Below are positions 1-19,236 of a stretch of DNA of 43,759 nt, piece after piece. The DNA lies in NCBI GenBank assembly GCA_038243565.1, contig JBBSQZ010000001.1, positions 1 to 43,759 on the forward strand. Reading direction: 5' to 3'. The notes beneath the pieces are model-generated. The model was not told the DNA's origin, searched no databases, and saw only the letters and a list, made by a program, of their open reading frames with translations. Position 1 is the stretch's first letter. Each line of letters begins with the position of its first letter. The position numbers and the translations under genes were made by a program. This DNA comes from Rhodothermales bacterium (GTDB lineage: Bacteria > Bacteroidota > Rhodothermia > Rhodothermales > Rubricoccaceae).

Positions 1-2
1 AC

Positions 3-1090: not shown

Positions 1091-2422
1091 ATGCCTTCCT
1101 TCCTCGACCTCGTCAAAGCCAAGAACGCCGACGGCTACGCGGGCGACCAGTACGGCGGCGGCGCCGGCCACGACGGCTCGGGCCTGCCGACGGGCGACGC
1201 CGGCAACTTCATGTTCGCGACGGGCATCGAGTGCTCCAACCCGACCATCAAGGGCGGGACCGTGCGCCGCGACCTGCTCGCCGAGTGCGGCCACTACGAC
1301 CGCTACAAGGAGGACCTCGGGCTGGTGAAAGAGATGGGCCTGAAGGTGCTGCGCTACGGCCTGCCGTACCCGGTCGTCGCGCGCCGCGAGGGCCGCTACG
1401 ACTGGGACTTCGCCGACGCCGCGATGGCCGAGATCAAGCGCCTCGGCATCACGCCGATCCTGGACCTGATGCACTTCGGCGTGCCGGACTGGATCGGCGA
1501 CTTCCAGAACCCGGACCTCCCGCTGCACTTCGCCAACTACGCCGCCGCCGTCGCCCGGCGCTACCCGTGGGTGCGCTTCTACACGCCCGTCAACGAGATC
1601 TACGTCACCGCTCGCGTCTCTGGGCTCGACGGCGTCTGGAACGAGCAGCTCAAGACGCACGAGGGATTCGTGACGGCCCTCAAGCACGCGACGGCCGCGT
1701 CCATCCTCGCCACGCAGCAGATCGCCAATCATCGGTCCGACTGCATCATCGTCCAGTCGGAGTCTGCCGAGTACCTCCACGAGGCCGTCGTCACGCCGTC
1801 CGACGAGACGCGCATCCACAACAAGATGCGCTTTCTCTCGCTGGACCTGCTCTACGCGAATCACCCCGACGCCGAGATGTACCAGTACCTCCTCGACAAC
1901 GGGATGACGCGCGCCGAGTACGACTGGTTCATGGCCGGCGAGCCGCCGGGCTACCAGGTCATGGGCAACGATTACTACGGCACGAACGAGCGCATCAAAC
2001 TGGCCGATGGCACCTTCTGCGAGGCGCAGGACGTGCTCGGGTGGTACCAGATCACGCACGAGTACGTCAAGCGGTATCGCAAGCCGGTGATGCACACGGA
2101 GACCAACCTTATGGACCCGGAGGAGGCCCCGGCGTGGCTCTGGAAGCAGTGGATGAACGTCCTCCGGATGCGCGAGGACGGCGTGCCCGTGCTCGGCTTT
2201 ACGTGGTACTCGCTCATCGACCAGGTGGACTGGGACATCGAGCTCGCCGAGGTCCGCGGCCATGTCAACCCGTGCGGCCTGTACGACATGGACCGCAAGA
2301 TCCGGCCCGTCGGCGAGCACTACAAGATGCTGCTCGAGCAGTTCGGCCAGATCACGATGGTCCCGCACGGCGAGCTGTTCGACATCACCGACCGCGAGGC
2401 GCGGCTGAAGGTGGAAGTCTGA
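1091..2422 (+). CDS. Glycoside hydrolase family 1-like protein
   Basis: The ATG at 1091 (MPSFLDLVKAK...) is in frame with track ORF 29..2422. It has TIM-barrel GH1-like motifs (YTPVNEIYV acid/base-like NE; HTETN nucleophile-like). The upstream part of the track ORF overlaps the GMC gene in another frame and looks non-coding. Confidence 0.6.
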   Translation: MPSFLDLVKAKNADGYAGDQYGGGAGHDGSGLPTGDAGNFMFATGIECSNPTIKGGTVRRDLLAECGHYDRYKEDLGLVKEMGLKVLRYGLPYPVVARREGRYDWDFADAAMAEIKRLGITPILDLMHFGVPDWIGDFQNPDLPLHFANYAAAVARRYPWVRFYTPVNEIYVTARVSGLDGVWNEQLKTHEGFVTALKHATAASILATQQIANHRSDCIIVQSESAEYLHEAVVTPSDETRIHNKMRFLSLDLLYANHPDAEMYQYLLDNGMTRAEYDWFMAGEPPGYQVMGNDYYGTNERIKLADGTFCEAQDVLGWYQITHEYVKRYRKPVMHTETNLMDPEEAPAWLWKQWMNVLRMREDGVPVLGFTWYSLIDQVDWDIELAEVRGHVNPCGLYDMDRKIRPVGEHYKMLLEQFGQITMVPHGELFDITDREARLKVEV

Positions 2423-2517
2423 ATGCAGTTTGGAGTTTGGAGAGGTCAGGCATCGCGCTCTGTCGATACGGAATGCCGCCATCTATCCCGCCTTCAAACT
2501 CCAAACTTCAAACTGCA
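2423..2517. repeat. Heptad-periodic hairpin element, GTTTGRA subfamily
   Basis: Arms are atgcagtttggagtttggagagg (2423-2445) and ccttcaaactccaaacttcaaactgca (2491-2517). They lie between convergent genes, and both stops sit in or adjacent to the arms. Confidence 0.85.
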
Positions 2518-2804
2518 CTTCCCACCTCCACGTGGCTGAGCGCGACCGGCGCGGCGGCGAAGAGCGGCGTCGTGCGCGCCCACGTCTCGCGGAAGAGGCC
2601 CGAGGCGCGGTAGGCGTCGAGCGCCTCGGGGCCGTCCCACAGGCTGACCGTCGTGAGGACGTTCGGGAAGCGCGGGTCCTGCCAGAGCTCGAGGCGCCGG
2701 CAGCCCGGCGCCGCGGCTATGCGGGCGCGCGTCTCGGCGAAGAGGGCGTGGAAGGCGTCGAGGCGGTCGGGCCGGAACGTCAGGCGGACGGTGCGGAGCA
2801 GCAT
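2508..2804 (-). CDS. ABM (antibiotic-biosynthesis-monooxygenase/Dabb-like) domain protein
   Basis: Internal Met (MLLRTVRLTFRPDRLDAFHALF...) of track ORF 2508..2849. About 98 aa, with the typical ABM size and beta-alpha-beta pattern. Its stop TGA lies inside a hairpin arm (GCAGTTTGA). Confidence 0.5.
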   Translation of the reverse strand: MLLRTVRLTFRPDRLDAFHALFAETRARIAAAPGCRRLELWQDPRFPNVLTTVSLWDGPEALDAYRASGLFRETWARTTPLFAAAPVALSHVEVGSAV

Positions 2805-2906
2805 CGGGAATCGAAATAGTGTGAACGGAGCACAGCCAATCCAGAGCATCGCCGACCCGTAGGGACACGGCGTGCCGTGTCCTCCTCCGCCCAGCGCGCC
2901 GCGCCG

Positions 2907-5408
2907 TCAGAGCGCCGCGACGGCGGCATCGGGGATCCAGCCGTCGCGGCCGTCCGTGCGGACGGCCCGCCACGTGCCGCGGCGCTCGCCCAGGCGCACG
3001 AGCATGCCCGGCGCCAGCGCCGCGCCCTCGGCCGCCTCCGGCGTCGGCTCCACGCGGACGCCCGCGGCCGTCAGCACGACGCCCTGGGGCCGCGACGCCT
3101 CGGCGAGCGTCGAGGCGGCGCCGGCGACGGCAAACAAGCCCAGCGCCCCGACGACGAGGGCGCCGCGGCGCCGCGCGTTCAGGAACAGCGCCAGCGCGAC
3201 GTAGACGAGCGCGAGGGCGAGCGCGACGAGGCCCGCCGGGCCCGCGACGCTGTGGGCGATGCGCCACGCGCGGGCGACCGCCGTCTCGGCCGGGGCGCCG
3301 GCGAGCGACCGGGCCAGCGCCGCATTCTGGCGGATCGGCACGCTCAGCGGCGCGAGGCGTGCGGCGCGCTCGGTGTGCAGCCGCGCCGCGCCGGCGTCGC
3401 CTCGGGCAAGCGCGAGCGTCCCCAGGTCGTGCTCGACGGCGGCCGAGACGCGCCCGGCCGCGCGCCCGGCATCGGCGGCACCAGCGAAGGCGGCCGCGGC
3501 GCCGGCCGAGTCGCCCTCGGCGGCGAGCTGCGAGCCGAGCGCCACGAGGCGGTTCGCCTCGGCGAGGCCCTGCGCGTGCGCGCCCGTCGCTGCGAGCAGG
3601 ACGAGCGCCGCGACGGCAGCCCGGCGAGCGATGCGCCGCGGCGCCGGCCGGTCGGCCGCGTCGATGGAGAAGAGCGTCGCGTCCGCTTCTGCAATCGCCT
3701 CGGCCGGCGTCGTGCGGGCCAGCGCCGGTGCGAACTGGCCGACGTCGAGCGCGGCGAGGACGGCGACGAGGCGGTCGGACTCGGGGACATGGCGATCCGC
3801 GAGCGCCTCGGCGAGTGCCGTGCGGTCGAGGCCCGTCGCGGCGATGCCGTAGCGGTCCGAGAGGAAGCCGTGGACGGCGCGCTCGGCCGCTGCGCAGGCG
3901 CCCGGCCCCGAGAGCGCGCGCGCCTCGGCGAGGCGCGCCTGCGCTGCCGCGTGGGCGGCGCGACGGCGGTTCTCGGGCGTGTCGGCCTCGGCGAGGCGGC
4001 GGCGGCGGCGGACGCCTGCGGCGAGAGCGAGTGCCAGCGCCGGAATGCCGAGTCCTGCGCCGAGGGCGGTCCACAGGATCCAGACGGGCATGCCCGGGCG
4101 CTGCCACGTCGCCTCGGCGATGAGGCCGGCTGCTGGACCCGCCGCAGCGGGGCGCGGCGTCCCGTCGGGCGCGGCGCCCGAGACGGCGACCTGCGCGGAG
4201 TCGGTCCGGAGCGTGCTGTACTGGCCCGCCTCAGGGTCGAAGTAGGACCAGACGGCCGGCGGCACGTCCAGCGGGCCGCCGCCCTGCGGGACGAGCGTGA
4301 ACGTGAACGTGCGCGTTCCTCGGACCGCGTTGCCGGTGCGGTCGATGTCCGAGTCGTCGCGCGGCGGGAAGACGTCGGCGCCGGGCGGCGTGCGGAGGGC
4401 GGGCGCGGCGAGCGTCGCGAGGTTGCCCGTGCCCGAGATCGTGACGGCGAGCTGCACCGGGTCCCCGGCCGAGGCGGTGCGCGCGACGGGCACCGCGGCC
4501 ATCGTGTACTGCCCGACGGCGCCGGAGAAGCCGGCCGGCGCGCCCGGCGGCAGCGGCGCCACGTCCAGCGTCACCGCCGGCGCCGTCACGTCGGCCTGGT
4601 CGAGGCCCTGGGAGAAGGGCGAGAAGAACGGCGCGAACGGGTCGTTGGGGTCGTTCGCGAACGGGCTGAGGCTCACGAAGTCGACCGAGAACGTCATCGG
4701 CGGCAGCGTGAGGCGGCCGTCGCGCGTCGGGAAGAGGGCGACGCGGCGCAGCGTCACCGCCTCGAACGCGCGCCCGCCGAGCGTGACGCCGTGCGGGACC
4801 GTGGAGGCGACGGCGAGCTCCTCGCGCCAGAAGCCGGGCGCGTCCCACGAGCCCGTCACGAGCGTCTGCCGCGGCTGCAGGCGGGGGTCGAAGTACAGCA
4901 CCACGTCGGCCACGACCTGCTGCCCGACGACGGCGCTCGCCTTCGACAGCTCGACGCGGGCGAAGAGGTCGCGGCGCTGACCCGGCGCGGGGCGCGGCGC
5001 GGGCGCCGTGCCCGGCGCGGCCTGCGGCGTCTGCGTCACCGTGATGCTCGCCGCGGCGACGGCCATCGTGCGGCCGCCGGTGGTGAAGCGGAGCGGCCCG
5101 ATGCGGGCGGGGCCGGGGCGGACGGCCGTGTAGGTCCACGTGAGCTCGCGCTCGGTCTGCCCGTTGACCTGCGCCATCACGTCGGACGTCGGCAGGCTCT
5201 GCGTCGGCCGCAGGCCGGCGGTCGTAGGCGGCGTCTGGACGGCGTCGCCCGTCCCGCCCTCGATCGTGAGCGTGTACGCCACCTGCCCGCCGACGCCGAC
5301 GAGCGTCGGCGAGACGCGGGCGGTCGCGCGGGGCTGGGCGTGGGCGGCGGCGCAGAGCACGAGGGCGAGCGTGGCCGCGGCGAGGCGGTTCAGTAGGGAG
5401 GGCGTCAC
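2907..5408 (-). CDS. BatD-like protein fused to a BatE-like TPR + SH3 module
   Basis: The N-terminus has a signal peptide and BatD-like repeats, followed by a TM segment (VWILWTALGAGLGIPALALALAAG). A second signal-like segment (AAVAALVLLAATGAHAQ) is followed by a TPR-like region, TM helices and a C-terminal SH3-like tail (RGTWRAVRTDGRDGWIP). The GTG start overlaps the upstream stop (GTGA). Confidence 0.7.
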   Translation of the reverse strand: MTPSLLNRLAAATLALVLCAAAHAQPRATARVSPTLVGVGGQVAYTLTIEGGTGDAVQTPPTTAGLRPTQSLPTSDVMAQVNGQTERELTWTYTAVRPGPARIGPLRFTTGGRTMAVAAASITVTQTPQAAPGTAPAPRPAPGQRRDLFARVELSKASAVVGQQVVADVVLYFDPRLQPRQTLVTGSWDAPGFWREELAVASTVPHGVTLGGRAFEAVTLRRVALFPTRDGRLTLPPMTFSVDFVSLSPFANDPNDPFAPFFSPFSQGLDQADVTAPAVTLDVAPLPPGAPAGFSGAVGQYTMAAVPVARTASAGDPVQLAVTISGTGNLATLAAPALRTPPGADVFPPRDDSDIDRTGNAVRGTRTFTFTLVPQGGGPLDVPPAVWSYFDPEAGQYSTLRTDSAQVAVSGAAPDGTPRPAAAGPAAGLIAEATWQRPGMPVWILWTALGAGLGIPALALALAAGVRRRRRLAEADTPENRRRAAHAAAQARLAEARALSGPGACAAAERAVHGFLSDRYGIAATGLDRTALAEALADRHVPESDRLVAVLAALDVGQFAPALARTTPAEAIAEADATLFSIDAADRPAPRRIARRAAVAALVLLAATGAHAQGLAEANRLVALGSQLAAEGDSAGAAAAFAGAADAGRAAGRVSAAVEHDLGTLALARGDAGAARLHTERAARLAPLSVPIRQNAALARSLAGAPAETAVARAWRIAHSVAGPAGLVALALALVYVALALFLNARRRGALVVGALGLFAVAGAASTLAEASRPQGVVLTAAGVRVEPTPEAAEGAALAPGMLVRLGERRGTWRAVRTDGRDGWIPDAAVAAL

Positions 5409-5965
5409 CAGTCCTGCTCGTTGGTTCGGGCGCGCGACGGCGCGCGGCGTATCTGGCGCAGCACCTGCCGCTCGTCGCCGCCGACGGCGTCGAGGATGCG
5501 CTCGGCCTGGTCCCGGGACATGTGCTCGTCGCCGGCCTGGGGCTGGTCCGACGGCGTGTTCTGCGGGTTCTGGCCGGTCGAGGGCGGCGCGTTGGGCGGG
5601 TTCTGCTGGCCGGCGTCGTCCGGCTTCTGCTCGTCCTGCTGCTGCTGATCCTGATCCTGCTGGTCTTGATTCTGCTGATCCTGGTCGCGCTGCTGATCCT
5701 GATCCTTCTGCTGATCCTGGTTGTCCTGCTGCTGCTTGATGAGGTCCCGCAGGGCGGCGGCCTTCTGGTCGCCCGGCGCGAGGCGCACGGCCTCCTCGGC
5801 CGCGGCGAGCGCGGGCGCATTCTGGCCGTCCACGTAGAGGCGCGCGGCCTCATGGTAGCGGTCCACGGCCGCCGGCGGCGTCGGCGCGGACGGACCGCGC
5901 GGGGCCGTTTGCTGGGCGATCGCCGGCGCGGCGACGGCGGCGGCGAGCAGGAGGAGGCGTTTCAT
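5405..5965 (-). CDS. BatC-like TPR protein with Q/D-rich low-complexity linker
   Basis: Signal peptide (MKRLLLLAAAVAAPAIAQ), one TPR-like unit, a QQQDNQDQQKDQDQQRDQDQQNQDQQDQDQQQQ tract, and a C-terminus ending MSRDQAERILDAV...EQDW, as in BatC-type proteins. Confidence 0.6.
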   Translation of the reverse strand: MKRLLLLAAAVAAPAIAQQTAPRGPSAPTPPAAVDRYHEAARLYVDGQNAPALAAAEEAVRLAPGDQKAAALRDLIKQQQDNQDQQKDQDQQRDQDQQNQDQQDQDQQQQDEQKPDDAGQQNPPNAPPSTGQNPQNTPSDQPQAGDEHMSRDQAERILDAVGGDERQVLRQIRRAPSRARTNEQDW

Positions 5966-5974
5966 GGCGGGAGT

Positions 5975-6751
5975 CTACAGACGGGTCGGGCCGGCGGGCG
6001 CGGGCCGCGGCGCAGGAGGGGCAACGGGCGCGGCCGGCGCGGTCGTCTCTGGCGCGGACGGTGCGGGCACGGCAGGCGGCGTCGGCATCTCGTCGATTTT
6101 GACGACGCCCTCGAGGCGCCCCGTGAAGTCGGCGAAGGCGGCGACGGTCGAGTCGCGGGCGAGGCCGTCGGTCATCACGTCGAGCGCCTCGCGGTAGCGC
6201 CGATCGGCGACGAGCGCGTCGGCGCGGGCCTTGATGCGCTTCGCCTCGTCGGACGGCTCGGGCGGCTCGGGCGGCGTCTGGCTGTCGAGGCGGCGCTGCG
6301 CGATCTCGTAGTTGCGGCGCGCGTCCGTGCGCGCCGGGTCCAGGACGAGGGCGCGGCGGAGGAGCGGGACGGCCGCGTCGTAGCGCTCGGCGAGGAGTGC
6401 GGCCGTGCCGGCGTCGTAGGCGATGCGCGCGCGCGCGGCGGGGTCCGGCTCGAGGCGGAGCGCCTGGGCGAAGGCGCTGTCGGCCTGCGCCGCGAGCGAG
6501 TCGGCGGCGGGCGGAGCGCCGGGCATCTGCGGCGCCGCTACGGTCGTGTCGCGAGTCAGCGCGAGGCCGAGGTTGTGCCACAGGCGCGCGGCTATCTCGT
6601 CCGAGACGCCCACACGCTCGACCCCGACGCGGAAAGCGGCCGCCGCGCCGGTCGTGTCACCGGCCTCGAGGAGGCGGTTGCCTGCGCGTCCGTCACGTAC
6701 GCCCGGCTGGAGCGCGGCGAAGCCGAGGAGCAGGAGAACGGCGAGGCGCAT
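5975..6751 (-). CDS. TPR-repeat protein of the Bat-type operon
   Basis: ATG at 6751. Signal-like N-terminus, TPR-like helices (YDAAVPLLRRALVLDPARTDARRNYEIA) and a Pro/Ala-rich tail. Sits between BatB and the BatC-like gene. Confidence 0.6.
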   Translation of the reverse strand: MRLAVLLLLGFAALQPGVRDGRAGNRLLEAGDTTGAAAAFRVGVERVGVSDEIAARLWHNLGLALTRDTTVAAPQMPGAPPAADSLAAQADSAFAQALRLEPDPAARARIAYDAGTAALLAERYDAAVPLLRRALVLDPARTDARRNYEIAQRRLDSQTPPEPPEPSDEAKRIKARADALVADRRYREALDVMTDGLARDSTVAAFADFTGRLEGVVKIDEMPTPPAVPAPSAPETTAPAAPVAPPAPRPAPAGPTRL

Positions 6752-6760
6752 GGGGAGGAA

Positions 6761-6885
6761 ATGCAGTTTGGAGTTTGGAGTTTGAAGGTTGGAGAGGTCC
6801 TGCTTGAGACGGAGTTTTCTTCAAACTGTTGGGCCACTGTGTTCCTACGTCCTCGCGCCTGTTCCCTCTCCAACCTTCAAACTGC
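6761..6885. repeat. Heptad-periodic hairpin element, GTTTGRA subfamily (intra-operon, batB stop to TPR start)
   Basis: Arms are atgcagtttggagtttggagtttgaaggttggagagg (6761-6797) and cctctccaaccttcaaactgc (6865-6885). Confidence 0.85.
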
Positions 6886-7917
6886 GGTCACAGTCTCCCC
6901 GAGGGCGAGCCGTTTTCTGGCCACCAGCCGCTCCGCAAGCAACAGGAGCACACCCAGTGCCAGCGGCCACTGGAACTGCTCCGCCGCGGCGTCGACGCGG
7001 TCCGAGGCGACGACGACGCGGTCGAGGCCGGCGAGTTCGTCATTGATCTGTCCCGCGGCCGAGCCACCGGTGCCGACGTGGACGAGCTTCGACCCGGCGA
7101 GGTCCTTCAGGGCGCCGGGTTCGTACGTCGAGATCACCGTGTTGCCCTGGCGGTCGCGCTTGAAACCGCCCTGGCGGCCACGCTGAACGTCCGGGATGGG
7201 TCCGCCGGCGTCCGTCCCGACGCCGAGCGCGAGCATCGTGACGCCGGTCTGGCGGAGCGCCGCGGCGGCCTGGTCCAGCCCGCTCTCGTGGTTCTCGCCA
7301 TCGCTCACGACGAGCAGCGCGCGCGGGCGCTTCGCCGCGGCGGGGTCGTTCTGCGCCGCGGCGTCGAAGGCCTCGGAGGCGACGCGGAGCGCGGCTGAGA
7401 AATCCGTCCCCTGGATCGCGATCTGCTCCGGGTCGACCGACTCGAGGAAAAGGCGGACGGCCGAGCGGTCAGTCGTGAGCGGGCACTGCAGGAAGGCCTC
7501 GCCGGCGAAGATCACGAGCCCCACGCGGTCGCCGCGGCGCGCCTGGACGATGCGCTCGATCTCGAGCGTCGCCCGGTCGAGGCGGCTCGGCGCGACGTCC
7601 TCGGTGCGCATCGACTCCGAGACGTCGAGGGCGATGACGAGGTCGAGGCTCTCGGACTTCGCCTCGCGCGTCGTCGCGCCGACGCGCGGCCCGGCGAGGG
7701 CGAGGGCGAGCCGGCCGAGCGCCGCCGCCGTGAGCGCGGCGCGGACGGTCCGCTGCCGGGCGAGCGGCGCGAGGCGCCGCAGCTGATCCGCCGCCCGCGG
7801 CCCGAGGAACAGGCGCAGCGCCTCGCGCCGCCGCCGCGCCGCGACGACGGCCAGCGCCGCGACCGCGGGCACGAGCACGAGCACGACGAGGAGCAGGGCG
7901 GGGGAGCGGAAGGTCAT
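6877..7917 (-). CDS. batB: VWA-domain membrane protein BatB
   Basis: N-terminal TM, a VWA MIDAS motif (DLVIALDVSESM), LLVVSDGENH, and a C-terminal TM. The stop TGA is embedded in a hairpin arm. Confidence 0.8.
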   Translation of the reverse strand: MTFRSPALLLVVLVLVPAVAALAVVAARRRREALRLFLGPRAADQLRRLAPLARQRTVRAALTAAALGRLALALAGPRVGATTREAKSESLDLVIALDVSESMRTEDVAPSRLDRATLEIERIVQARRGDRVGLVIFAGEAFLQCPLTTDRSAVRLFLESVDPEQIAIQGTDFSAALRVASEAFDAAAQNDPAAAKRPRALLVVSDGENHESGLDQAAAALRQTGVTMLALGVGTDAGGPIPDVQRGRQGGFKRDRQGNTVISTYEPGALKDLAGSKLVHVGTGGSAAGQINDELAGLDRVVVASDRVDAAAEQFQWPLALGVLLLLAERLVARKRLALGETVTAV

Positions 7918-7918
7918 C

Positions 7919-8012
7919 GGGGGATTGGGAAATGGCGACTGGGAAATGGAGGGCTGGAGAGAGGCGGCGTTGCGTTCAGCCAGTCCCCACTTCCCATTTC
8001 CCAGTCCCCATC
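7919..8012. repeat. Heptad-periodic hairpin element, GGGAAAT subfamily (intra-operon, batA stop to batB start)
   Basis: 5' arm gggggattgggaaatggcgactgggaaatggagggctggagagagg. 3' arm cagtccccacttcccatttcccagtccccatc. Confidence 0.8.
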
Positions 8013-8988
8013 ATGGCACGCGCCGGAGCCGGGTGCTGGCGAGGACGGACGCGGCGAGGAGGCACAGCAGCGCGGGCCAGAGCGCCCACATGTACAGCTC
8101 CTCGACGTCCAGAAGAACGGTTTCGTCGATGCGGGTCTTCTCGAGCTCGCCGATGGCCGCGTAGATCGAGCGCAGCGCCTCGACGTCGGTCGCGCGGAAG
8201 TAGCGGCCGCCGGTCGTCTCGGCGACGGCGCGCAGCGTGGCCTCGTCGATCTGGGCGGGCGGGCCGCCGAGGAAGCCGCCGAAGGGGCCGGAGCCCGGGA
8301 GCGTCCCGCTGTCCGTGCCGACGCCGATGGCGTAGATGCGGACGCCGAGCGCGCGCGCCGCCTCGGCGGCCGTCTGCGGGTCGATCTGGCCGCGGTTGCT
8401 CTGGCCGTCGGTGAGCAGGATGATGACCTTCGAGGCGGCGTCCGAGTCGCGCAGGCGCGCCGCCGACGTCGCGATGGCGGTGCCGATGGCGGTGCCGTCC
8501 TCGATCACGCCCATCCGGACCTCGCGGAGCATCGTCAGCAGGAACGGGTAGTCCAGCGTCAGCGGCGCCTGCGTGTACGCCTGCGCCGCGAAGACGACGA
8601 GGCCGACGCGGTCCGACGTGCGGCCGCGGACAAACTCGGCGGCGACGGCCTTGGCCGCCTCGAAGCGGTTCGGCGGGAAGTCCTCGGCCGTCATCGAGGT
8701 CGACGCGTCGAGCGCGAGCATGATGTCGATGCCTTCCGAGGAGCGGGCGACGGACGCGTCGCGGCGCTGCGGCCGCGCCAGCGCGATCACGGCGAGCGCG
8801 AGCGCGGCCATCCGCAGCGCGCCGGGCAGCCAGCCGAGGCGCGCCCAGCCCGCCGCCGGCAGGCCCGCCGCGTCGCCCGCCGCCGAGAAGCGGACGCCCG
8901 GCGCTGCCCCACGCCCGCGCCGCGCGTGCCACGCGAGCGCGGGCACGGCGAGGAGCAGCAGGAGCCAGAGCGGCGAGGCGAAGGTCAC
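8011..8988 (-). CDS. batA: VWA-domain membrane protein BatA
   Basis: GTG start in a GTGA overlap with the upstream gene. MTFASPLWLL..., MIDAS motif DIMLALDASTSM, IILLTDGQSN, and a C-terminal TM. Confidence 0.8.
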   Translation of the reverse strand: MTFASPLWLLLLLAVPALAWHARRGRGAAPGVRFSAAGDAAGLPAAGWARLGWLPGALRMAALALAVIALARPQRRDASVARSSEGIDIMLALDASTSMTAEDFPPNRFEAAKAVAAEFVRGRTSDRVGLVVFAAQAYTQAPLTLDYPFLLTMLREVRMGVIEDGTAIGTAIATSAARLRDSDAASKVIILLTDGQSNRGQIDPQTAAEAARALGVRIYAIGVGTDSGTLPGSGPFGGFLGGPPAQIDEATLRAVAETTGGRYFRATDVEALRSIYAAIGELEKTRIDETVLLDVEELYMWALWPALLCLLAASVLASTRLRRVP

Positions 8989-10873: not shown

Positions 10874-10896
10874 GGACGGCGGAAGGCGGAGGGTTG
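10874..10896. repeat. Heptad tract (GGAnGGn)x3; on the minus strand it is C-rich and abuts the proposed DUF58 TTG start
   Basis: ggacggc ggaaggc ggagggt. It is the inverted complement of the purQ leader tract ~400 nt away. Confidence 0.6.
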
Positions 10897-11125: not shown

Positions 11126-11272
11126 GTCATCCCGAGCTTGTCGAGGGATCTCTGCCGACTCAGATGCCACGGAACAGCGCGCTGTCGAGGCGCCTCGCGC
11201 GGCAGAGATCCTTCGACTCCGTGGGCTGCGCCGGCCTTCGGCGCGCGCAGGCGCTCACGCCACTCAGGATGC
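11126..11272. repeat. Nested inverted-repeat element (MITE/REP-like)
   Basis: Outer arms gtcatcccgag ... ctcaggatgcc. Inner arms tcgagggatctctgcc (11141-11156) and ggcagagatccttcga (11201-11216). Confidence 0.6.
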
Positions 11273-11298
11273 CGGTGTAGTGGGGTCCGCGGCAGATT

Positions 11299-11324
11299 CC
11301 GCCCTCCGCCCTCCGCCCTCCGCC
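11299..11324. repeat. Tandem heptad tract (CCGCCCT)x3.7 ending at the purQ ATG
   Basis: ccgccct ccgccct ccgccct ccgcc, followed by ATG. Confidence 0.85.
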
Positions 11325-12065: not shown

Positions 12066-12529
12066 TGGCCGTCGAGGTCCCGGTCCGGACGCAGCGCACG
12101 GCGCACCTTCGCCTCGCGCCCGACGCTGCGTTCGCCTTCCTCGTGGACGTGCCGGCGTGGGGCGCGCTCTTCCCCAACGTCGAGCGCATCGAGCCGCCCG
12201 GCGGCGAGCCGGACGCGTTCGTGTGGACGATGGCGCCCATCGGGCCGCCCGGCGTCGCGGTGCAGGTCGTCTACGCCTGCCGCTACGCGGCCGACGCCGC
12301 GGCGCAGACCGTCGCGTGGTCGCCCGTGGAGGGCGTCGGGACGGGGCGCTTCTCGGGGCGCGTCGACCTGGAGGCACGGGCGGACGGCGGCACGGACGCG
12401 CACCTGGACCTCGACGCCGTGCTCTCGATTCCGGCGCCGGCGTTCATCCGCCCGCTCGTCGTCGCCGCGGTGACGTTCGAGTTCGGGCGCATGATGGACA
12501 CGTTCGCCGGGCGCCTCGAGGCGCAGTAG
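12065..12529 (+). CDS. SRPBCC/CoxG-like small protein
   Basis: The ATG overlaps the purQ stop (TGATG). 154 aa ([40 protein letters not shown]...), with SRPBCC-like size and pattern. Confidence 0.45.
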   Translation: MAVEVPVRTQRTAHLRLAPDAAFAFLVDVPAWGALFPNVERIEPPGGEPDAFVWTMAPIGPPGVAVQVVYACRYAADAAAQTVAWSPVEGVGTGRFSGRVDLEARADGGTDAHLDLDAVLSIPAPAFIRPLVVAAVTFEFGRMMDTFAGRLEAQ

Positions 12530-12547
12530 CGCGTCGCGATGCCTCGC

Positions 12548-13066
12548 TCAGGCGACGAGCCGCTGGTCCGCCCTCGCGTCTACGGTCGCCTTCTGGCGGA
12601 CGAGGTCGAGGTACGACGGGACCGGGTAGCGGTCGCCGTAGATCGCCTTCATCTTCTCCCAGCGCAGCTTGCAGGCCATCGCAAAGGCCGTGTCCTCGCC
12701 GTAGCGCCGGATCGAGAACGACGTGCCCCGCGCGACGCCGGGCTCGGGGTTCCACGAGACCGCGTAGACCTCGTGCCGCACGCCGCGGCGGTCCATCTTG
12801 TGCGTCCGCGAGATGCCGACGACGCCCGACGTGTTGCTGCGGTTGGCGCGCACGAGGCGCCGCTTCGGGGAGACGGCAGGGAGCGCGGCGACCTCGCCCG
12901 CGAGCGCCTGGCGGTAGGTCTCGGCCGCCTCGAAGGCTGCGTCGCGCGTGCTGTGCTTGCGGTCCGAGAAGAGGCGCGAGAACGTCTTTCCGTGGCGGTA
13001 GACGCGGACCTGCCAGCCGTGCGTCGAGTCCGAGTCGATGCGAATGATTCCTTTCGACCGGGGCAT
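12548..13066 (-). CDS. AP2-domain DNA-binding protein (two AP2-like units)
   Basis: The internal Met at 13066 begins MPRSKGIIRIDSDSTHGWQVRVYRHGKTFSRLFSDRKHSTRDAAFEAAETYRQAL. A second unit reads SGVVGISRT...YAVSWNP...SFSIRRYGEDTAFAMACKLR. Both fit the bacterial AP2 three-strand + helix pattern. Confidence 0.55.
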   Translation of the reverse strand: MPRSKGIIRIDSDSTHGWQVRVYRHGKTFSRLFSDRKHSTRDAAFEAAETYRQALAGEVAALPAVSPKRRLVRANRSNTSGVVGISRTHKMDRRGVRHEVYAVSWNPEPGVARGTSFSIRRYGEDTAFAMACKLRWEKMKAIYGDRYPVPSYLDLVRQKATVDARADQRLVA

Positions 13067-13171
13067 GGGCTCAGGGAATTCCTTAGGTAAAGGGGAATGT
13101 AATCTCCTGTTTCCTAATGGCAAGCGGCTGGACCTCAATTTATCAGCGCTGAGCTCCTGGCTGCACGGGAG

Positions 13172-14401
13172 TTAAGCCGGGTCGATGGGGCACCCGGCCT
13201 GCACCTCGGCGCCCCAGCGGCCATGAACCCGCCCTTTCCAGCCGATTCGCGGCCTCAGCGCGAGCGCCGCCGGCAGCGTGACGAGGTAGCCGAAGAGGAA
13301 CGCCTCGAAGCCGGGCAGGTCGCGCGCGTGCAGCCGCCCGCCGACGCGGCGCAAAACAGCGCGAAGTAACGCCGCCTCGGCAAGCGTCTTGACGGCAATC
13401 GCACCGGCTGCGACGCCCGGCGCCACGAGCAGGCCCGCGAGCGGGAGCGCGTGCACGGCCCACAGCCCGACGTACGCCGTCACGACGGGCGCACCGCCCG
13501 TGAGCCCGCCGCGCGCCCACCGCCGGCGCTGCCGGTACGCCGCCGCGACGCCGTCGACGGGCAGTGTCCAGACGGTCGTCGGCGCGGAGACGGGGAAGCG
13601 GACGCGGAACGCCGACCGCTCGGCGACGGCGCGGACGAGCGTGAAGTCCTCGGTGACGGAGAACGGCAGCGCGGGGTAGCCGCCGACGGCGTCGTAGGCC
13701 GCGCGGCGGATGCCCATGTTGTTGCCCATGCCCGTCGCCGGCAGGCCCGCCTCGGCGAGCGCCGAGACGGCGCCGATGAGCAGCGTCCAGTCCAGCGCCT
13801 GCACGCGGTCGAACGGCCGCTCGGGGCGCGGGTCGATGCGCGCGAGGCCGCAGACGAGGCCGACGGTCGGGTCGGCGAAGGCGGCGGCCTTCGCGCGGGC
13901 CCACAGCGGCGGCGCGGCGCAGTCGGCGTCGGTCACGAGCACGACCTCGGCCGTCGTCGTCTCGATAGCCTCGTGGAGCGCGCGCGCCTTGCCGCAGAGC
14001 GCGTCTGCCGTGTCGTGGACGCGGACGAGGCGCAGGCGCGGCAGGAGCGCCTCGGGCACCTCGTGGGCGGCGCCGTCCCCTTCGGTGATGTCGCCGGCGA
14101 GGGCGAGCGCGCGCGGCATCCGCGACCGGACGATCGCCGCCGTCCGGTCCATCGATCCATCGTCGGCGACGACGATCTCGAGGCGGTCCGCGGGGTAGTC
14201 CTGCGCGAGGAGCGCGTCGAGGCAGCGCCCGATGGTCGTCTCCTCGTCGCGCGCGGCGACGACGATGGCGAGCGTCGGCAGGTCGTCCTCGGCGACGGGC
14301 GGCGGGAGGTGCGGCGCGCGCGCCGTCCGCCATGCGAGCCCGCCGACGAACGCAGCGTAGGTGCCGACGGCGGCGAGGAGCGCGGGGACGATCACGGTCA
14401 C
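13172..14401 (-). CDS. Processive family-2 glycosyltransferase (membrane-embedded), paralog 1
   Basis: GTG start in a GTGA overlap with the deacetylase stop. AIVVAARDEE, VVADDGSMD, VTDADC, TEDFTL and RQRRRW (D,D,D,QxxRW signature). N- and C-terminal TM helices. Confidence 0.8.
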   Translation of the reverse strand: MTVIVPALLAAVGTYAAFVGGLAWRTARAPHLPPPVAEDDLPTLAIVVAARDEETTIGRCLDALLAQDYPADRLEIVVADDGSMDRTAAIVRSRMPRALALAGDITEGDGAAHEVPEALLPRLRLVRVHDTADALCGKARALHEAIETTTAEVVLVTDADCAAPPLWARAKAAAFADPTVGLVCGLARIDPRPERPFDRVQALDWTLLIGAVSALAEAGLPATGMGNNMGIRRAAYDAVGGYPALPFSVTEDFTLVRAVAERSAFRVRFPVSAPTTVWTLPVDGVAAAYRQRRRWARGGLTGGAPVVTAYVGLWAVHALPLAGLLVAPGVAAGAIAVKTLAEAALLRAVLRRVGGRLHARDLPGFEAFLFGYLVTLPAALALRPRIGWKGRVHGRWGAEVQAGCPIDPA

Positions 14402-15069
14402 GGCGTGGCCGGTGGGGGAAGGGCGGGGAAGCGCCAGCCGGCGGCGGCGAGGCGCGGCAGCGCGAGGCGCAGCGCCTCGGCAGCCCGGGCGGCCGGCACG
14501 CCGTCGTGGATCACGGCGACGGCGCCGGGGCGCGCGGCGCGTACGAGGCGCTCGGCGAGGACGTCGGCGGGCACGGACGGAAGGTAGTCGCCCGGCATGA
14601 GGTCCCACAGGACGAGCCGCCGCCCGGCGCGTGCCCACCGCACGATGCCGGGCGTCACGCGGCCGTACGGCGGCCGCACGTCGCGAACAGCTGTGCCGAG
14701 CGCCTGCTCGAGGAGCACCTCGGCGCGCGCCAGCTCGGCGACGGCAGCGCCGGGCGGCATCGCCCAGGCGCTTCGGTGCGCGCCGCCGTGGTTGCCGGCG
14801 CGATGGCCGCCCGCCGTCCAACGCCGCGCGAGGCCGGGGAGCGCCGCGGCGCGGTCGGCCGAGAGGAAGGCGAGCGCGTGGGCGTCGCAGGTGGCGAGCG
14901 CCTCGAGGAGGAGCGGCGTCCCGCGGTCGTCCGGCCCGTCGTCGATCGTGACGTACAGCAGCGGGTGGCCCTGCGCGTCTCGGCGCGGGCCGCGGAGGAC
15001 GGCGCCGGGCACGAGCGGCCCGACGAGGCGCACGCCATGCGTATCGCGCCAGAACGCGACGTCATTCAC
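14398..15069 (-). CDS. Polysaccharide deacetylase (NodB homology domain)
   Basis: GTG start in a GTGA overlap with the upstream GT2 stop. YVTIDDGPDD (NodB motif 1 TFDDG-like), GNHGGAH, RPPYGR. About 223 aa. Confidence 0.75.
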   Translation of the reverse strand: MNDVAFWRDTHGVRLVGPLVPGAVLRGPRRDAQGHPLLYVTIDDGPDDRGTPLLLEALATCDAHALAFLSADRAAALPGLARRWTAGGHRAGNHGGAHRSAWAMPPGAAVAELARAEVLLEQALGTAVRDVRPPYGRVTPGIVRWARAGRRLVLWDLMPGDYLPSVPADVLAERLVRAARPGAVAVIHDGVPAARAAEALRLALPRLAAAGWRFPALPPPATP

Positions 15070-16271
15070 CGGTCCACGCGGCGCCCTTTCCACTCGAAGC
15101 CCGACGAGGCGCCGAGCAGGCCGAGCGCGGCGACGGCGAGCGAGTACGGCGCGTGCAGCACGAGGTGCGCGGGGTAGGCCCAGAGCAGACGCGTCTGCCC
15201 GAAGCGCCGCGCCGCCGGGACGAGCACGGCGAGGTCGCCGAAGGCTTTGAGCGCAAGGGCCGCAATCACATACGGCCAGAGGCTCGGGGCGAACGGGAGC
15301 GCCAGCACGGCGAGGACGAGCGCGATGAAGAACGCCCCGATGCCGAGCAGCATCCGCTGAAGCCGCGCCGGGTAGAGCGCGCCCTTCGAGGCCCACCGCC
15401 GGCGCTGGTGGACGAACGCGTGGAGCGTCCGCACGGGCTCCGTCAGCACCGTCGCGCCGGGCGCGGCGCAGAAGCGGACGTCGAGCGGCGTCTGGTAGGC
15501 CACCTTCTGCATCAGCAGCTCGTCGTCGCCGGACGTGACGTGGTCCACGCCGGAGAAGCCGCCGAGGGCGGCGAACGTCTCGCGGCGGTACGCGACCGAG
15601 GCGCCGTTGGCGAGGTTCGGCTGGCCGAGCCCGATGCCGCCGGCGCCGCACGCCATCAGGCCGAAGAAGTCCATCGCCTGGAGGCGGACGAAGAGGCTCG
15701 GGCGGTCGCCGAGGGCGTAGGCGACGGGGCCGGAGACGAACGCCGTCTCGGGGCCGTCGAACGCGCCGGCCATCGCGCGCGCCCAGCCCGGCGGGACGAT
15801 GCAGTCGGCGTCGGTCGTGAGCACGAGCTCGCCGCGGGCGAACGCGACGGCCTTCTCGATGGCCGCCTTCTTGTGCGCGCGCTCGCGGCGCCGGTTCTCG
15901 GGGATGCGGACGAGCCGCAGCGGCCCGTCGCCTTCGATCTCGTCCGGATCCGTCTCGTCCACGCCGGCTTCGACGAGGCGCCGCGCCATGCGGCTCCGCA
16001 CGACGTCGGCCGTCGCGTCCTGCGAGTCGTCGTCGACGACGATGAGCTCGAGGCGCCCGGCCGGATAGTCCTGCGCGAGAACGGAGTCCACGCACGCGCC
16101 GATGGTGTTTTCCTCGTTGCGGGCGGGCACGACGACGGTCACCGTCGGCCACTCGAAGCGCGGAGATCTGGCATCGGCCTCGCGGAACACGCGGCGCAGG
16201 CCGACGGCCCAGCCGCCGAGGCGCAGCGCGTACGCCGCGGCGAGCGCGACGAGGAGCAGCCCGGCCGTCAC
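15066..16271 (-). CDS. Processive family-2 glycosyltransferase (membrane-embedded), paralog 2
   Basis: GTG start in a GTGA overlap with the upstream gene stop. TVVVPARNEE, IVVDDDSQD, TTDADC, SGDDELL and HQRRRW. Clearly paralogous to 13172..14401. Confidence 0.8.
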   Translation of the reverse strand: MTAGLLLVALAAAYALRLGGWAVGLRRVFREADARSPRFEWPTVTVVVPARNEENTIGACVDSVLAQDYPAGRLELIVVDDDSQDATADVVRSRMARRLVEAGVDETDPDEIEGDGPLRLVRIPENRRRERAHKKAAIEKAVAFARGELVLTTDADCIVPPGWARAMAGAFDGPETAFVSGPVAYALGDRPSLFVRLQAMDFFGLMACGAGGIGLGQPNLANGASVAYRRETFAALGGFSGVDHVTSGDDELLMQKVAYQTPLDVRFCAAPGATVLTEPVRTLHAFVHQRRRWASKGALYPARLQRMLLGIGAFFIALVLAVLALPFAPSLWPYVIAALALKAFGDLAVLVPAARRFGQTRLLWAYPAHLVLHAPYSLAVAALGLLGASSGFEWKGRRVDR

Positions 16272-17254
16272 GCGGCGCGGCCGGACAGGCGGGCGTCGGG
16301 CAGCACCGCGGCGCGCGGCACGCGGAGGCGCGACAGCAGCGGCACGCCGGCCGCGGCGGGCAGCAGCAGGTTGATCACGAACACGGCGAGCGACGCGTTG
16401 AGGGCCGCCGCCGCCGAGACGCCCGCACCGGCCAGCACCACGACGGCCACACCCTCGCGCACGCCGAGGTCGCCCAGCGTGAGCTGCGGCACAGCACTCT
16501 TCAAGAGGAACACCACCGCGACGCCGGCCGCGACGGCGCCCCACGCTGCGGCCGGCGCGAACGCGTGGACGAGGAGGACGAACTGCGCCGAGAAGATGCC
16601 GTAACGCAGGAACGACAGCGCCACGAGGACGGCCGCCTCGCCGCGCGGCACGCGCTCGAACGACGCCAGCGCCTCGCGGACGACGCGGACGGGCACGATC
16701 TGCCCCAGCACGCGTGCCGTCCGAGACGGGGACGCGAACGCCGCCGCGAGCACGCCCGACGCGGCCACGGCCCACACGCCGACGCCGGCCCACACACCGC
16801 TCGGCGCGATGCCCGCGGCCGGATTCACGAACAGCGCCGCGGCTCCGCCGGCGAGGCAAGCCAGCAGTGTCGCCATCCGCTCGGCGAACGTCAGCGCGGC
16901 GGACGTGCCGGCGGTGACGCCGCGTAAAAAGGCCGCGCGCCCGACGAAGTCGCCGACGCGGCCGGGCGTGAGCAGCCCCAGCGGGTACGCCCCGACGACA
17001 GCGGCCACGGCGTCGCGCATCCGCACCTCCGGCTGAACGCGCCGCACGAGGCGCCCCCACCGCACCGCCTCGAGGCCGACGTTGAGCGGCAGCAGCGCCA
17101 GCGCGGCGCCGATCCAGCGGACGTCGGCCGCGGCCCACGCCGCGCCCACGGCGGACGGGTCCACGAGGCGCACGAGGCCCCACACGGCGACGGCGGCCAG
17201 CGCGGCCTTGCCGGCGAAGAGCCAGCGCGGGGAGACGGGGCGGGGGACGGGCAC
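16268..17254 (-). CDS. Flippase-like (LPG-synthase-TM / UPF0104) integral membrane protein
   Basis: 328 aa and polytopic. WLFAGKAALAAVAVWGLVRLVD...RWGRL...GLLTPGRVGDFVGRA is typical of the MprF flippase-like domain family. First gene of the operon. The GTG start is uncertain. Confidence 0.6.
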   Translation of the reverse strand: MPVPRPVSPRWLFAGKAALAAVAVWGLVRLVDPSAVGAAWAAADVRWIGAALALLPLNVGLEAVRWGRLVRRVQPEVRMRDAVAAVVGAYPLGLLTPGRVGDFVGRAAFLRGVTAGTSAALTFAERMATLLACLAGGAAALFVNPAAGIAPSGVWAGVGVWAVAASGVLAAAFASPSRTARVLGQIVPVRVVREALASFERVPRGEAAVLVALSFLRYGIFSAQFVLLVHAFAPAAAWGAVAAGVAVVFLLKSAVPQLTLGDLGVREGVAVVVLAGAGVSAAAALNASLAVFVINLLLPAAAGVPLLSRLRVPRAAVLPDARLSGRAA

Positions 17255-17488
17255 GCGCGCAAGCTAGGCGGCCGAGCGGCCGGCGTCTAGGAAGCGGCCG
17301 AAAAGACGGCGCCGCGGGATGCCGCGGCGCGATGATTCGAACGATGCGGAGCGCCTGACCTGTCCGTCTGCCGGGGCGCTCGGCGCGGAGCACGGTGAAC
17401 CGGGTGTGGTGCTCGGGCCGAGACGCGCCACCGGCGCTACGGCGGCGGCGGTGGACCGATCTTGTCCGCCTTGCCTTCCGTCCTTGCC

Positions 17489-18379
17489 ATGTCTCTGCCG
17501 CTCGTCGTCCCGTTCACCAAGATGTCCGGCGCCGGCAACGACTTCGTCGTGCTCGACAACCGCTTCCTGCGCTTCTCCGACGCCGAGCTCGCGGCGCTCG
17601 CGGCGCAGGCCTGCCCGCGGCGCGTCGGCGTCGGGGCCGACGGCCTGCTCGCGCTCGACGACGCGGATGGCGACGCCGACTTCCGGATGCGCTACCGCAA
17701 CGCCGACGGCTCGCTCGCGACGATGTGCGGCAACGGCGCGCGGTGCCTCGCCCGCTTCGCCGCCCGCGCGGGCCTCGGCCTGGAATCCGCCGACGGCACC
17801 GTTCGGCTCACCTTTGACACCGACGGCGGCCGCTACTCGGCGCGCGTCCTGGGCGGCCGCGGCGCCTCGGGAGCGGTCTTGCTGAACGTCCCGCCGCCGC
17901 GCGACCTCGCCGCGGTCACCGGCTTCGAGGACATGATCGAGACGGACGGCGAGCCCAGCCCGCTCGTCCGCATCTGGACCGGGACGGAGCACCTCGTCGC
18001 CTTCGTCGAGAACGTGGCCGCCGTCGATCTCGAAGCGGTCGGGCCGCGGTTGCGCCGCGACGTGCTATTCGCGCCGGCCGGGACGAACGTCAACGTCGTC
18101 GAAATCGCCGAGGCGGGGGAGGACGCGGCGCCGCGCATCGTCGTGCGGACGTTCGAGAAGGGCGTCGAGGGCGAGACGCTCGCCTGCGGGACGGGCGCGC
18201 TCGCCGCGGCACTCGCCGCGTTCCACACCGGCCGCGTCCACGAACCCGCGATGGACGTCGCGATGCCCGGCGGCACGCTCCGCGTCCACTTCACGCCGGG
18301 AACCGACGGCGTCTCGGACCTCGTGCTCGAGGGGCCGGCCGAGACGGTGTTCGAGGGGACGCTGGAGTGGAGAGGGTAG
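17489..18379 (+). CDS. dapF: Diaminopimelate epimerase
   Basis: FTKMSGAGNDFVVLD, MCGNGARC and ACGTGA are the two catalytic-Cys motifs. The ATG at 17489 is in frame with the track ORF. Confidence 0.9.
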   Translation: MSLPLVVPFTKMSGAGNDFVVLDNRFLRFSDAELAALAAQACPRRVGVGADGLLALDDADGDADFRMRYRNADGSLATMCGNGARCLARFAARAGLGLESADGTVRLTFDTDGGRYSARVLGGRGASGAVLLNVPPPRDLAAVTGFEDMIETDGEPSPLVRIWTGTEHLVAFVENVAAVDLEAVGPRLRRDVLFAPAGTNVNVVEIAEAGEDAAPRIVVRTFEKGVEGETLACGTGALAAALAAFHTGRVHEPAMDVAMPGGTLRVHFTPGTDGVSDLVLEGPAETVFEGTLEWRG

Positions 18380-18403
18380 CGCGCTGGTTTAGGCTGACGC
18401 CGC

Positions 18404-18503
18404 GAGAGTTTGGAGTTTGAAGTTTGGGGAACGTGGAGTGGAGTGAAAGCAAGCCGTCCCGATGGTCGCACGGTCTACCACCTCTTCAAACTTCAAACTG
18501 CAT
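18404..18503. repeat. Heptad-periodic hairpin element, GTTTGRA subfamily (between convergent dapF and ubiE)
   Basis: Arms are gagagtttggagtttgaagtttgggg and cctcttcaaacttcaaactgcat. The ubiE stop is followed on its own strand by aatgcagtttgaag. Confidence 0.85.
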
Positions 18504-18504
18504 T

Positions 18505-19236
<732 letters not shown>

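Follow-up and report, generated by a model that had tools for sequence, protein, structure and literature searches.

Heptamer-armed palindromic elements beside the stop and start codons of a Rhodothermales contig

Introduction

The window analysed here, i.e., the whole stretch of 43,759 bp that makes up contig JBBSQZ010000001.1 (assembly GCA_038243565.1) of a Rhodothermales bacterium from the family Rubricoccaceae, has a G+C content of 74% and contains palindromic intergenic elements, the arms of which are made of tandem 7-nt units (heptamers) lying at the stop and start codons of the neighbouring genes. The best named matches of the proteins encoded by the window come from Rubricoccaceae and Rubrivirga. 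Pfam confirms the names of GH1 (Glyco_hydro_1), ubiE (Ubie_methyltran), ABM, ppiD (SurA_N/Rotamase), dapF, menB, menE, ksgA, mgtE and a purQ-like gene (GATase_5), and assigns the batB product to the VWA, BatB-type proteins, the BatA domain occurring in the neighbouring protein. Two parts of the window have a lower G+C content, 69% in the first 2 kb of the region 1-2400 (a GMC oxidoreductase fragment and GH1), vs about 74-76% elsewhere, and 69-70% at 32-36 kb.

According to the original prediction made on this DNA, arms of the GTTTGRA type carry a conserved head beginning with TGA, which supplies or abuts the stop codon of four genes. The quoted gene ends are correct letter for letter on the coding strands: GH1 ends with gtc TGA followed by ATGCAGTTTGGAG and, on the minus strand, ubiE with gcc TGA followed by AATGCAGTTTGAAG, ABM with agt GCA GTT TGA followed by AGTTTGGAG and batB with acc GCA GTT TGA followed by AGGTTGGAG. 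The head predicted on the ppiD strand of the AT-rich element E4 is also present, the TGA being followed there by GAAATGCGGTTTAAGG.

The comparisons reported below rely on contigs of relatives that are syntenic with window positions 3,077-28,336 and display 75-91% protein identity at the junctions compared, and on a sample of 21 GTTTGRA arms from five assemblies (six arms from the window and 15 from other Rubricoccaceae/Rhodothermales), used for the head logo and the stop distances.

Architecture of the Elements

The elements consist of a head, two to four tandem heptamers, an AGAGG motif and a loop of 14-73 nt, followed by the mirror image of this succession. The heptamer types occurring in the arms include GTTTGRA, GTTTAAG and GGACRGA, and the number of units is often unequal between the two arms of one element (2/3, 4/2, 3/2). 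Period-7 arrays were found by Tandem Repeats Finder at every arm, and the window holds 13 heptamer arrays vs 1.5 in shuffled sequences. Seven hairpins and three unpaired C-rich arrays adjoining start codons are present (Table 1). Three hairpins are located between convergent genes, where they occupy every reliable convergent junction of the window, and the four others are located inside operons. In all seven hairpins the G-rich arm is found 5' on both strands, so that an incoming gene runs into the G arm before the C arm, the latter ending, in operons, at the following ATG. On the opposite strand the head reads CTGCATTT(T), which corresponds to the base of the stem with a short U-tail.

Table 1. 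Position and composition of the heptamer elements identified in the window.
Element	Type	Position	Strand	Location	Parts	Stops, starts and flanks
E1	GTTTGRA-type hairpin	2423-2518		Between convergent GH1 and ABM	Head ATGCA 2423-2427; left arm 2428-2442; loop 2443-2491; right arm 2492-2513; then TGCAC	GH1 stop 2420-2422 (+) abuts head; ABM stop 2508-2510 (-) in first heptamer of right arm
E2	GTTTGRA-type hairpin	6759-6885	Sense strand -	Inside bat operon	Head AAATGCA 6759-6765; left arm 6766-6794; loop; right arm 6868-6882; then TGC	batB stop 6877-6879 (-) is TGA of first heptamer; TPR gene start 6749-6751 (-) after CTGCATTTCCTCCCC
E3	GTTTGRA-type hairpin	18406-18505		Between convergent dapF and ubiE	Left arm 18408-18429 (GAGA end, headless); loop; right arm 18484-18498; head AAATGCAG (- strand) 18498-18505	ubiE stop 18505-18507 (-) overlaps first base of head; dapF stop 18377-18379 (+) 28 nt from arm
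E4	GGTTTAA (GTTTAAG)-type hairpin	28360-28432		Between convergent menE and ppiD	29-nt arms, 93% complementary; head GAAATGCGG	menE TAA 28377-28379 (+) and last three codons in left arm; ppiD stop 28433-28435 (-) abuts head
batA/batB hairpin	GGGGACT/GGGAAAT-type	7918-8010	-	Exactly fills batA stop to batB start		Direct ATGA duplication, 8011-8014 and 7914-7917
menB/menA hairpin	GGGGAAT/CCCCAGT-type	24955-25059	+	Between menB and menA	Begins GTGCGG	Straight after menB stop 24952-24954
ksgA/mgtE hairpin	GGACRGA/TCCGTCC-type	35994-36070	+	Between ksgA and mgtE	Head AAATGCAG 35994-36001, as in E3; C arm (TCCGTCC)x4	ksgA TAG 36038-36040 in loop; C arm abuts mgtE start 36071
purQ array	(TCCGCCC)x4, single C-rich	11297-11324	+	Upstream of purQ-like gene (GATase_5)		Abuts ATG 11325
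batA array	CCTCCGC-type, C-rich	8991-9018	-	Upstream of batA		2 nt upstream of GTG (8988)
Hexapeptide transferase array	(CCACCAT)x5.7, perfect	31416-31456	-	Start of hexapeptide-repeat transferase gene		Last unit overlaps ATG 31417-31415

The batA array falls within the C-terminal tail of the gene upstream of batA. Another palindrome of the window (34245-34301), not made of heptamers, possesses 24-nt arms that are 83% complementary and a 9-nt loop, and fills a 58-nt spacer between co-directional genes.

The Conserved Head

The motif GCAGTTTGRAG is matched 14 times in the window with at most one mismatch (0.36 matches expected), ATGCRGTTTRRR four times (0.01 expected) and AAATGCRG four times (0.40 expected). 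All four AAATGCRG matches are hairpin heads and they span three heptamer types, GTTTGRA in E2 and E3, GGTTTAA in E4 and GGACRGA in the ksgA/mgtE element, so that the conserved head, (G)GAAATGCR, is a feature of the whole family and not a property of the GTTTGRA subfamily. In the logo of the 21 arms, the positions -9 to -1 read GGAAATGCA (present in 11, 10, 13, 13, 11, 12, 15, 18 and 19 arms, respectively), AGG follows the last heptamer, and T seldom occupies the positions required for a TGA. Since T is not conserved before the head, the stop codon lies outside the head consensus. The conserved head of the original prediction is thus retained, but extends beyond one subfamily and loses its TGA. 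Five of the six GTTTGRA arms of the window contain GCAG, the exception being the left arm of E3. The possibility that the ATG of the head opens a mini-reading frame (MQFEV* at ubiE, MRFKV* at ppiD) was discarded, the same frame running over dozens of codons in E1 and in the loci L030 and L074.

Association with Stop Codons

A confident stop of an open reading frame occurs 5-16 nt before the first heptamer in ten of the 21 arms and at +3, as the TGA of GTT-TGA-A, in two to four others; among the remaining arms, a few have the stop at +10, one has it at -31 and five have no confident stop. For most arms the stop falls between -16 and +10, a clustering that would be required by the idea that the elements target stop-proximal sequences. 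However, TGA, TAG and TAA all occur beside the arms, the offsets vary and a single ATGA duplication was found, so that a sequence-specific targeting is not shown. The association fits better with tolerance or selection in very short spacers.

Gene Ends Compared with Orthologs

The UbiE tail ...SLYRGRA* and the length of the protein match at least 50 orthologs, the element beginning directly after the native TGA. The relative L115 has the same convergent ubiE/dapF order with a GC-rich spacer of 51 nt and no element, and 28 nt of spacer are left on the dapF side in the window. The GH1 tail ...ARLKVEV* is likewise kept in the orthologs P0368 and P0408. The closest ABM ortholog, from L117 (94% identical), ends with GCG GCC TGA (GSAA*) vs GCA GTT TGA (GSAV*) in the window, the stop position being the same and one residue differing. 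The ABM/GH1 spacer of L117 contains, at the E1 site, its own diverged GTTTAAG-like element with a nested palindrome, and in L118 the ABM spacer consists of 64 nt free of repeats. The nested palindrome (L117 510-595, ATGTCATCCCGG...CCGGGATGACAT), located within the degenerate ABM/GH1 element, is apparently another small inverted-repeat element inserted in the loop.

A true displacement of the stop is found in batB, where the former start region GTGACC is now read within the gene, the tail of which is ...ACT GTG ACC GCA GTT TGA, with the TGA of the first E2 heptamer as stop and the ATG at the end of the element as start of the downstream TPR gene. The element was predicted to supply a final Ala-Val-stop to both ABM and batB; batB indeed takes its stop from the arm, but ABM has its stop at the same position as its ortholog. 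BatB tails are variable across all the orthologs compared. In Rubrivirga and many other relatives, BatB and the TPR protein encoded downstream form a single fusion protein (544-596 residues; P0025, P0031, P0034, P0037-P0067); the window and its closest relatives have separate genes for the two, encoding about 346 (6877-7917) and about 258 residues (5975-6751), respectively.

Two further cases, menE and, more tentatively, ksgA, were not among the four genes initially described. The MenE tail reads ...AQRRFKV* in the window, with the TAA and the three preceding codons inside the E4 arm, vs ...AERRAAGE* in L115, the menE/ppiD spacer of which comprises 14 nt only. The ksgA frame continues across the head and the G arm; as solved structures of KsgA reach no further than about residue 278-282 of the 299 encoded here, the protein appears to gain about 14 residues from the element. 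As a separate feature of KsgA (35141-36040), about 28 low-complexity residues (..SEKEGGKRGAGNACLSSPSPLQPSHPS..) are inserted at about 95-122 compared to solved homologs, with which the match is split into 6-94 and 123-278. At the other end of a reading frame, the homologous N-terminus of MenA lies near 25060, and the only in-frame ATG/GTG/TTG codons upstream are the ATG at 24966 and 24987, both located within the G arm of the menB/menA hairpin. MenA may therefore start inside the element, with an N-terminal extension encoded by it.

The repeated rewriting of gene 3' ends that had been proposed consequently holds for batB and menE, which are re-stopped, but not for GH1 and ubiE, which are unchanged, nor beyond one residue for ABM. 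As judged from the aligned sequences, conserved C-termini (GH1, ubiE) are untouched and unconstrained tails (batB, menE, one residue of ABM) are overwritten.

Empty Sites and Dispersal

Five of the element sites are empty in syntenic relatives, namely batA/batB, batB/TPR, ubiE/dapF, menB/menA and menE/ppiD. At batA/batB, L106 (89% protein identity) reads ...CC ATGA CCTTCCGC..., vs ...CC ATGA, the 93-nt hairpin, a second ATGA and CCTTCCGC... in the window; read at face value, the hairpin was cleanly inserted with a duplication of 4 bp, neither the stop nor the start being lost. In other relatives the batA/batB junction is TGATG (L108) or a 33-nt spacer without repeats (L110). The batB/TPR junction of the relatives (L106/L107, L108/L109, L110/L111) is a GTGA, TGATG or ATGA overlap without any element. 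In the window, GTGACC and CGCCTC are parted by the 123-nt GCAG...CCCCATG at the place where L110 reads ATGACC CGC CTC. Between menB and menA, the element directly follows the menB TGA and stands in place of a 26-nt spacer, unrelated to the element, and the menA ATG of L112. At menB/menA and menE/ppiD, the flanks are replaced and not duplicated. L108, L112 and L115 have about 0 heptamer arrays over their syntenic stretches, vs 13 in the window. An assembly artefact is ruled out, since the same architecture occurs in independent assemblies.

At least nine Rubricoccaceae/Rhodothermales loci of other assemblies carry GTTTGRA elements, most of them with the (G)GAAATGCR head. In these elements the units again follow the order GGA-GAA-GGA and the inner end is again AGAGG; no synteny of their loci with the window was detected by tblastx. 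The loops of E1 and L075 are identical at 38 of 46 positions (score 52; the best of 2000 shuffles scored 22). The gene upstream in L075 encodes a thioredoxin-like lipoprotein instead of GH1, and the two loci are non-orthologous. Searching the loops against all the loci with blastn-short yielded self matches only.

In a wider scan of a genome collection, GCAGTTTGRAGTTTGRAG was found at no fewer than 105 loci (L001-L105 listed), which among the matches listed are mostly unrelated xAGTTTG arrays from many phyla. The arrays listed, made of units such as GGAGTTT, GCAGTTT and GAAGTTT (e.g., L006, L041, L053, L062, L065, L083), come from Verrucomicrobiota, Planctomycetota, Bacteroidota, Acidobacteriota, Chloroflexota, Nitrospirota and Nostoc, and some of them form hairpins with an inverted partner, e.g., AGGAGTT/AACTCCT in Nostoc (L065). 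A metagenome scan for ATGCAGTTTGRAGTTTGRAG gave 12 loci, all of low G+C content and none of the Rubricoccaceae type.

Relatives devoid of the elements of the window carry a few of their own, with other heptamer types. The purQ array is absent upstream of the L108 ortholog; L110 displays a different pair there (6205-6310, reverse strand), with a GGGATGG-type G arm after the stop of a YceI-family gene and a C arm abutting the purQ ATG. In L118 (4703-4730), (ATCCCGA)n abuts a start codon. The YceI-family gene, located between the DUF58 gene and purQ in L108 (6269-6934) and L110 (6290-6970), has no counterpart in the window, and about 460 nt of the latter (about 10870-11330) have no BLAST match to L108/L110. 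Elsewhere, the synteny with L112 (UbiE 91% identical) breaks at the ubiE stop, an ABC-transporter gene following 1 nt further on (L112 10732-10734), and L115 (81% identity) shares the convergent dapF of the window (L115 10733-10783 vs window 18505).

RNA Folding and Possible Roles

The predicted energies of the seven hairpins range from -39 to -59 kcal/mol, e.g., -42.9 kcal/mol (z -4.7) for E1, -43.7 kcal/mol (z -7.35) for E4 and -39.3 kcal/mol (z -6.0) for the ksgA/mgtE element. For six of ten strands, representing five of the seven elements, 0-1 of 200 shuffled sequences fold as well; E2 and the menB/menA hairpin are weakly distinguished from shuffles. No match was found in the whole window with Rfam 15 at the gathering score. 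The elements between convergent genes are probably 3'-end RNA hairpins, either terminator-like or stabilising, and those inside operons would be spacers that preserve translational coupling. Many REP elements located within 15 nt of a stop stall ribosomes and lower the expression of the upstream gene (summarised in PMC12306157); since hairpins at such distances stall the ribosomes of E. coli, a REP-like effect on the terminating ribosome is plausible for the present elements.

Origin of the Elements

The explanation toward which we lean, with some reserve, is that of a dispersed and recently expanded family of heptamer-armed palindromic intergenic elements, placed flush with stops and starts by selection in short spacers, the head being the conserved end of the stem. 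Recent, lineage-specific insertions or replacements would have occurred in a genome with spacers of 0-50 nt, and only the copies leaving both neighbouring reading frames usable would have survived. The flush position would follow from these short spacers, from the need to keep both frames intact and from the occurrence of stops in the G arm and none in the C arm. Where a tail is unconstrained, the arm could overlap the last one to four codons and its own TGA or TAA could serve (GTT-TGA-A, GGT-TTA-A); where it is conserved, the native stop would be kept and the element would begin at the next base. The arms would then evolve by heptamer slippage. In RNA, the stems of 15-25 bp, A+T-rich for this genome, would have to be opened by a ribosome ending at the adjacent stop. 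At convergent junctions, the head would give an A-tract and its complement a UUU(U) tail. In operons, the element would replace the ATGA overlap with coupling kept, because the melted G arm would free the C arm at the start codon.

Several observations weigh against this explanation. By pairwise local alignment, 35 of 36 loop pairs are unrelated, E1/L075 alone being alike, an uncommon situation among elements that spread by copy-and-paste, and a target-site-like duplication occurs at one junction only (ATGA at batA/batB) and not at E2. The orthologous E1 site of L117 contains a strongly diverged type of arm, which points to a fast in-place turnover that is not cleanly separable from mobility. 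A scan of positions 1-20000 for canonical terminators and promoters gave 10 sites, none of which is at E1-E3 or at the batA/batB hairpin. The elements also depart from intrinsic terminators by their loops of 14-73 nt, their A+T-rich stems and their tails, CUGCAUUU(U) at best, and four of them are inside operons, where termination would be harmful. Finally, the arms of the ksgA/mgtE element have A·C mismatches in the sense RNA that would become G·U in the antisense RNA, unlike what selection for a sense hairpin would give.

The ATGA-ATGA direct duplication around the batA/batB insert could be interpreted as the trace of an actively mobile element, with a machinery recognising stop-proximal sequences (e.g., TGA/ATGA), new stops being provided as a rule and genes systematically re-tailed. 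In this respect, the similarity to element-free relatives stops 0-1 nt after the stop at batA, ubiE and menB, the E2 insert begins 2 nt past the ancestral batB stop and a head abuts the ppiD stop. Stop-head fusions such as TGA-ATGCA, TGA-AATGCA, TAG-ATGCA, TAG-AAAATGCA and TGA-GAAATGCG occur in several genomes, and the conserved head beside a variable stem recalls the GTAG head of REP elements, which is recognised by the RAYT transposase. Targeted mobility of this kind nevertheless seems unlikely: all three stop codons are found, at offsets of -31 to +10, T is not conserved before the head, and some heads (E2 left arm, L086-, L097+) are turned toward the start of a gene or toward no gene. Moreover, E2 lacks a duplication, its succession GTGACC/GCAG...CCCCATG/CGCCTC resembling an insertion with replacement, the C-termini of GH1 and UbiE are intact, and selection alone forces a flush position where genes overlap.

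Alternatively, the elements could have arisen without any mobility, by in-place slippage of heptamers, to which this unit length is the most prone, and palindrome formation. Heads and heptamers would then be due to convergent selection, e.g., because bidirectional terminators need A/U tracts or because a protein binds there. The uniqueness of the loops in 35 of 36 comparisons, the unequal unit numbers of the two arms, the other heptamers and other loop at the E1 site of L117 and the presence of xAGTTTG arrays in many phyla are consistent with such an origin, as is the fact that heptamers form the commonest class of long simple sequence repeats, ascribed to slippage (Mrazek 2007, summarised in PMC4679880). 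We regard it as improbable, since the E1 and L075 loops remain alike in different gene contexts and genomes, the GGA-GAA-GGA order, AGAGG and the head recur at non-syntenic loci, and a structure of 93-125 nt is either wholly present or absent, without intermediates, vs the bare ATGA of a relative of 89% identity.

Still more doubtful is a reading of the elements as mobile gene-junction cassettes, in which an unknown nuclease or transposase would read the AAATGCRG head and insert precisely at stops and starts with an ATGA duplication, each cassette carrying a stop of its own within the G arm and a start context made of the C arm and the ATG. If true, genes could thereby be uncoupled, split or re-tailed without losing expression, which would offer a mechanistic handle on the STRR-type heptamer repeats of many phyla. 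The partnerless C-rich arrays abutting the starts of purQ, batA and the hexapeptide transferase gene, reminiscent of those of PMC4679880 (S1, Csp-like and CsrA-like proteins have been proposed as candidates for binding TAACTGA repeats), and the conservation of the head across heptamer types could also suggest sites for an RNA- or DNA-binding protein, i.e., a post-transcriptional regulon in which the hairpin is secondary. This has very little probability, because at least four unrelated heptamer sequences within 44 kb fit poorly with one specificity, the neighbouring genes are functionally unrelated and no candidate protein was identified.

Comparison with Known Repeat Families

Dispersed elements with heptamer arms, as favoured above, invite comparison with several families of small bacterial repeats. 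Bacterial MITEs (Correia/NEMIS, RUP, ERIC) have terminal inverted repeats, an intergenic location biased toward gene 3' ends and a presence/absence polymorphism, and can supply stops and starts and modify the ends of proteins. The arms and head of our elements similarly form terminal inverted repeats. An ATGA duplication is present at batA/batB and absent at E2. The internal sequence of our elements is not shared between copies except for E1/L075, and their arms are repetitive with a variable number of units. In the attC sites of integrons, the core GTTRRRY and the inverse core RYYYAAC occupy the ends of an imperfect palindrome following the cassette reading frame. An attC identity was rejected, without a search for an integrase, since GTTTGRA has a T at position 4, where R is required, and the flanks are syntenic housekeeping genes (bat, men, dapF, ubiE).

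REP elements play a role in mRNA stabilisation. Like REP, BIME and REPIN sequences, the elements of the window are short palindromes located at 3' ends, between convergent genes and in operons, with a conserved head by the stem. They differ by a head which is not GTAG (head logo GGAAATGCA), by heptamer stems that are A+T-rich for this genome (about 43% G+C) instead of a short GC-rich imperfect palindrome, and by long loops. Separate GC-rich palindromes headed by GTAG (CCGTAGAGACGCCCCGCCGGGGCGTCTC) resembling the classical REP/REPIN are also present in the window, two inverted copies 107 nt apart at the contig end (43330-43364 and 43472-43506) and one between menA and menC (25988-26013).

Heptanucleotide repeats near stops and starts have been reported in cyanobacteria since about 1990, as well as in xanthomonads and sulfur bacteria, and we know of no accepted origin or function for them. 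The elements described here would be a Rubricoccaceae version of these repeats (STRR, GGGAATC, GGGGAYT, TAACTGA). Rehm et al. 2015 (PMC4692102) described GGGAATC in Xanthomonas and GGGGA(C/T)T, of the STRR type, in Nostoc, and left their function open. On the coding strand, the G-rich strand of these heptamers occurs at most 50 bp beyond a stop and in some cases overlaps it, and the C-rich strand precedes starts; they are rare between divergent genes (PMC4692102). The elements of the window share with them an enrichment in tandem 7-nt units, mostly in two to four or more copies and non-coding, the same rule of position, inverted pairs that can form stem-loops, a length and a sequence that differ strongly between close relatives, and even the GGGGAAT and GGGGACT units (PMC4692102). 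They are distinguished by GTTTGRA and GTTTAAG arms that lack G-tracts and are framed by the GGAAATGCR head and AGAGG, by arrays mostly paired into one hairpin, by empty sites showing insertion at stop/start overlaps, and by their host, a Rhodothermia member of 74% G+C. Because of this lack of G-tracts, the idea of a G-quadruplex is inapplicable to the GTTTRRR arms, no run of three G occurring in GTTTGRA or GTTTAAG units; four or more runs of at least three G would be available in the batA/batB and menB/menA elements only.

The TAACTGA direct repeats of Beggiatoaceae, cyanobacteria and some Bacteroidetes (MacGregor 2015, PMC4679880) similarly lie within a few nt of starts, replace the Shine-Dalgarno region and have a patchy phylogenetic spread. 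They are direct repeats upstream of starts, with one indirect case per 170 sets (PMC4679880), in contrast to the mainly inverted, stop-anchored elements of the window.

The present elements thus differ from published heptamers by their framed palindromes, their common head, their non-G-quadruplex units and the evidence for insertion offered by empty sites. What is new is a high-GC Rhodothermia lineage with repeats built as framed palindromes sharing one head, together with matched empty sites in close relatives, where the junctions were formerly bare ATGA/GTGA overlaps, and direct cases of elements donating stops, protein tails and possibly starts. If the pattern holds genome-wide, it bears on the annotation of gene ends in such genomes. 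Element-bearing and element-free sister lineages would constitute a tractable system to distinguish between terminators, coupling devices and tolerated parasites.

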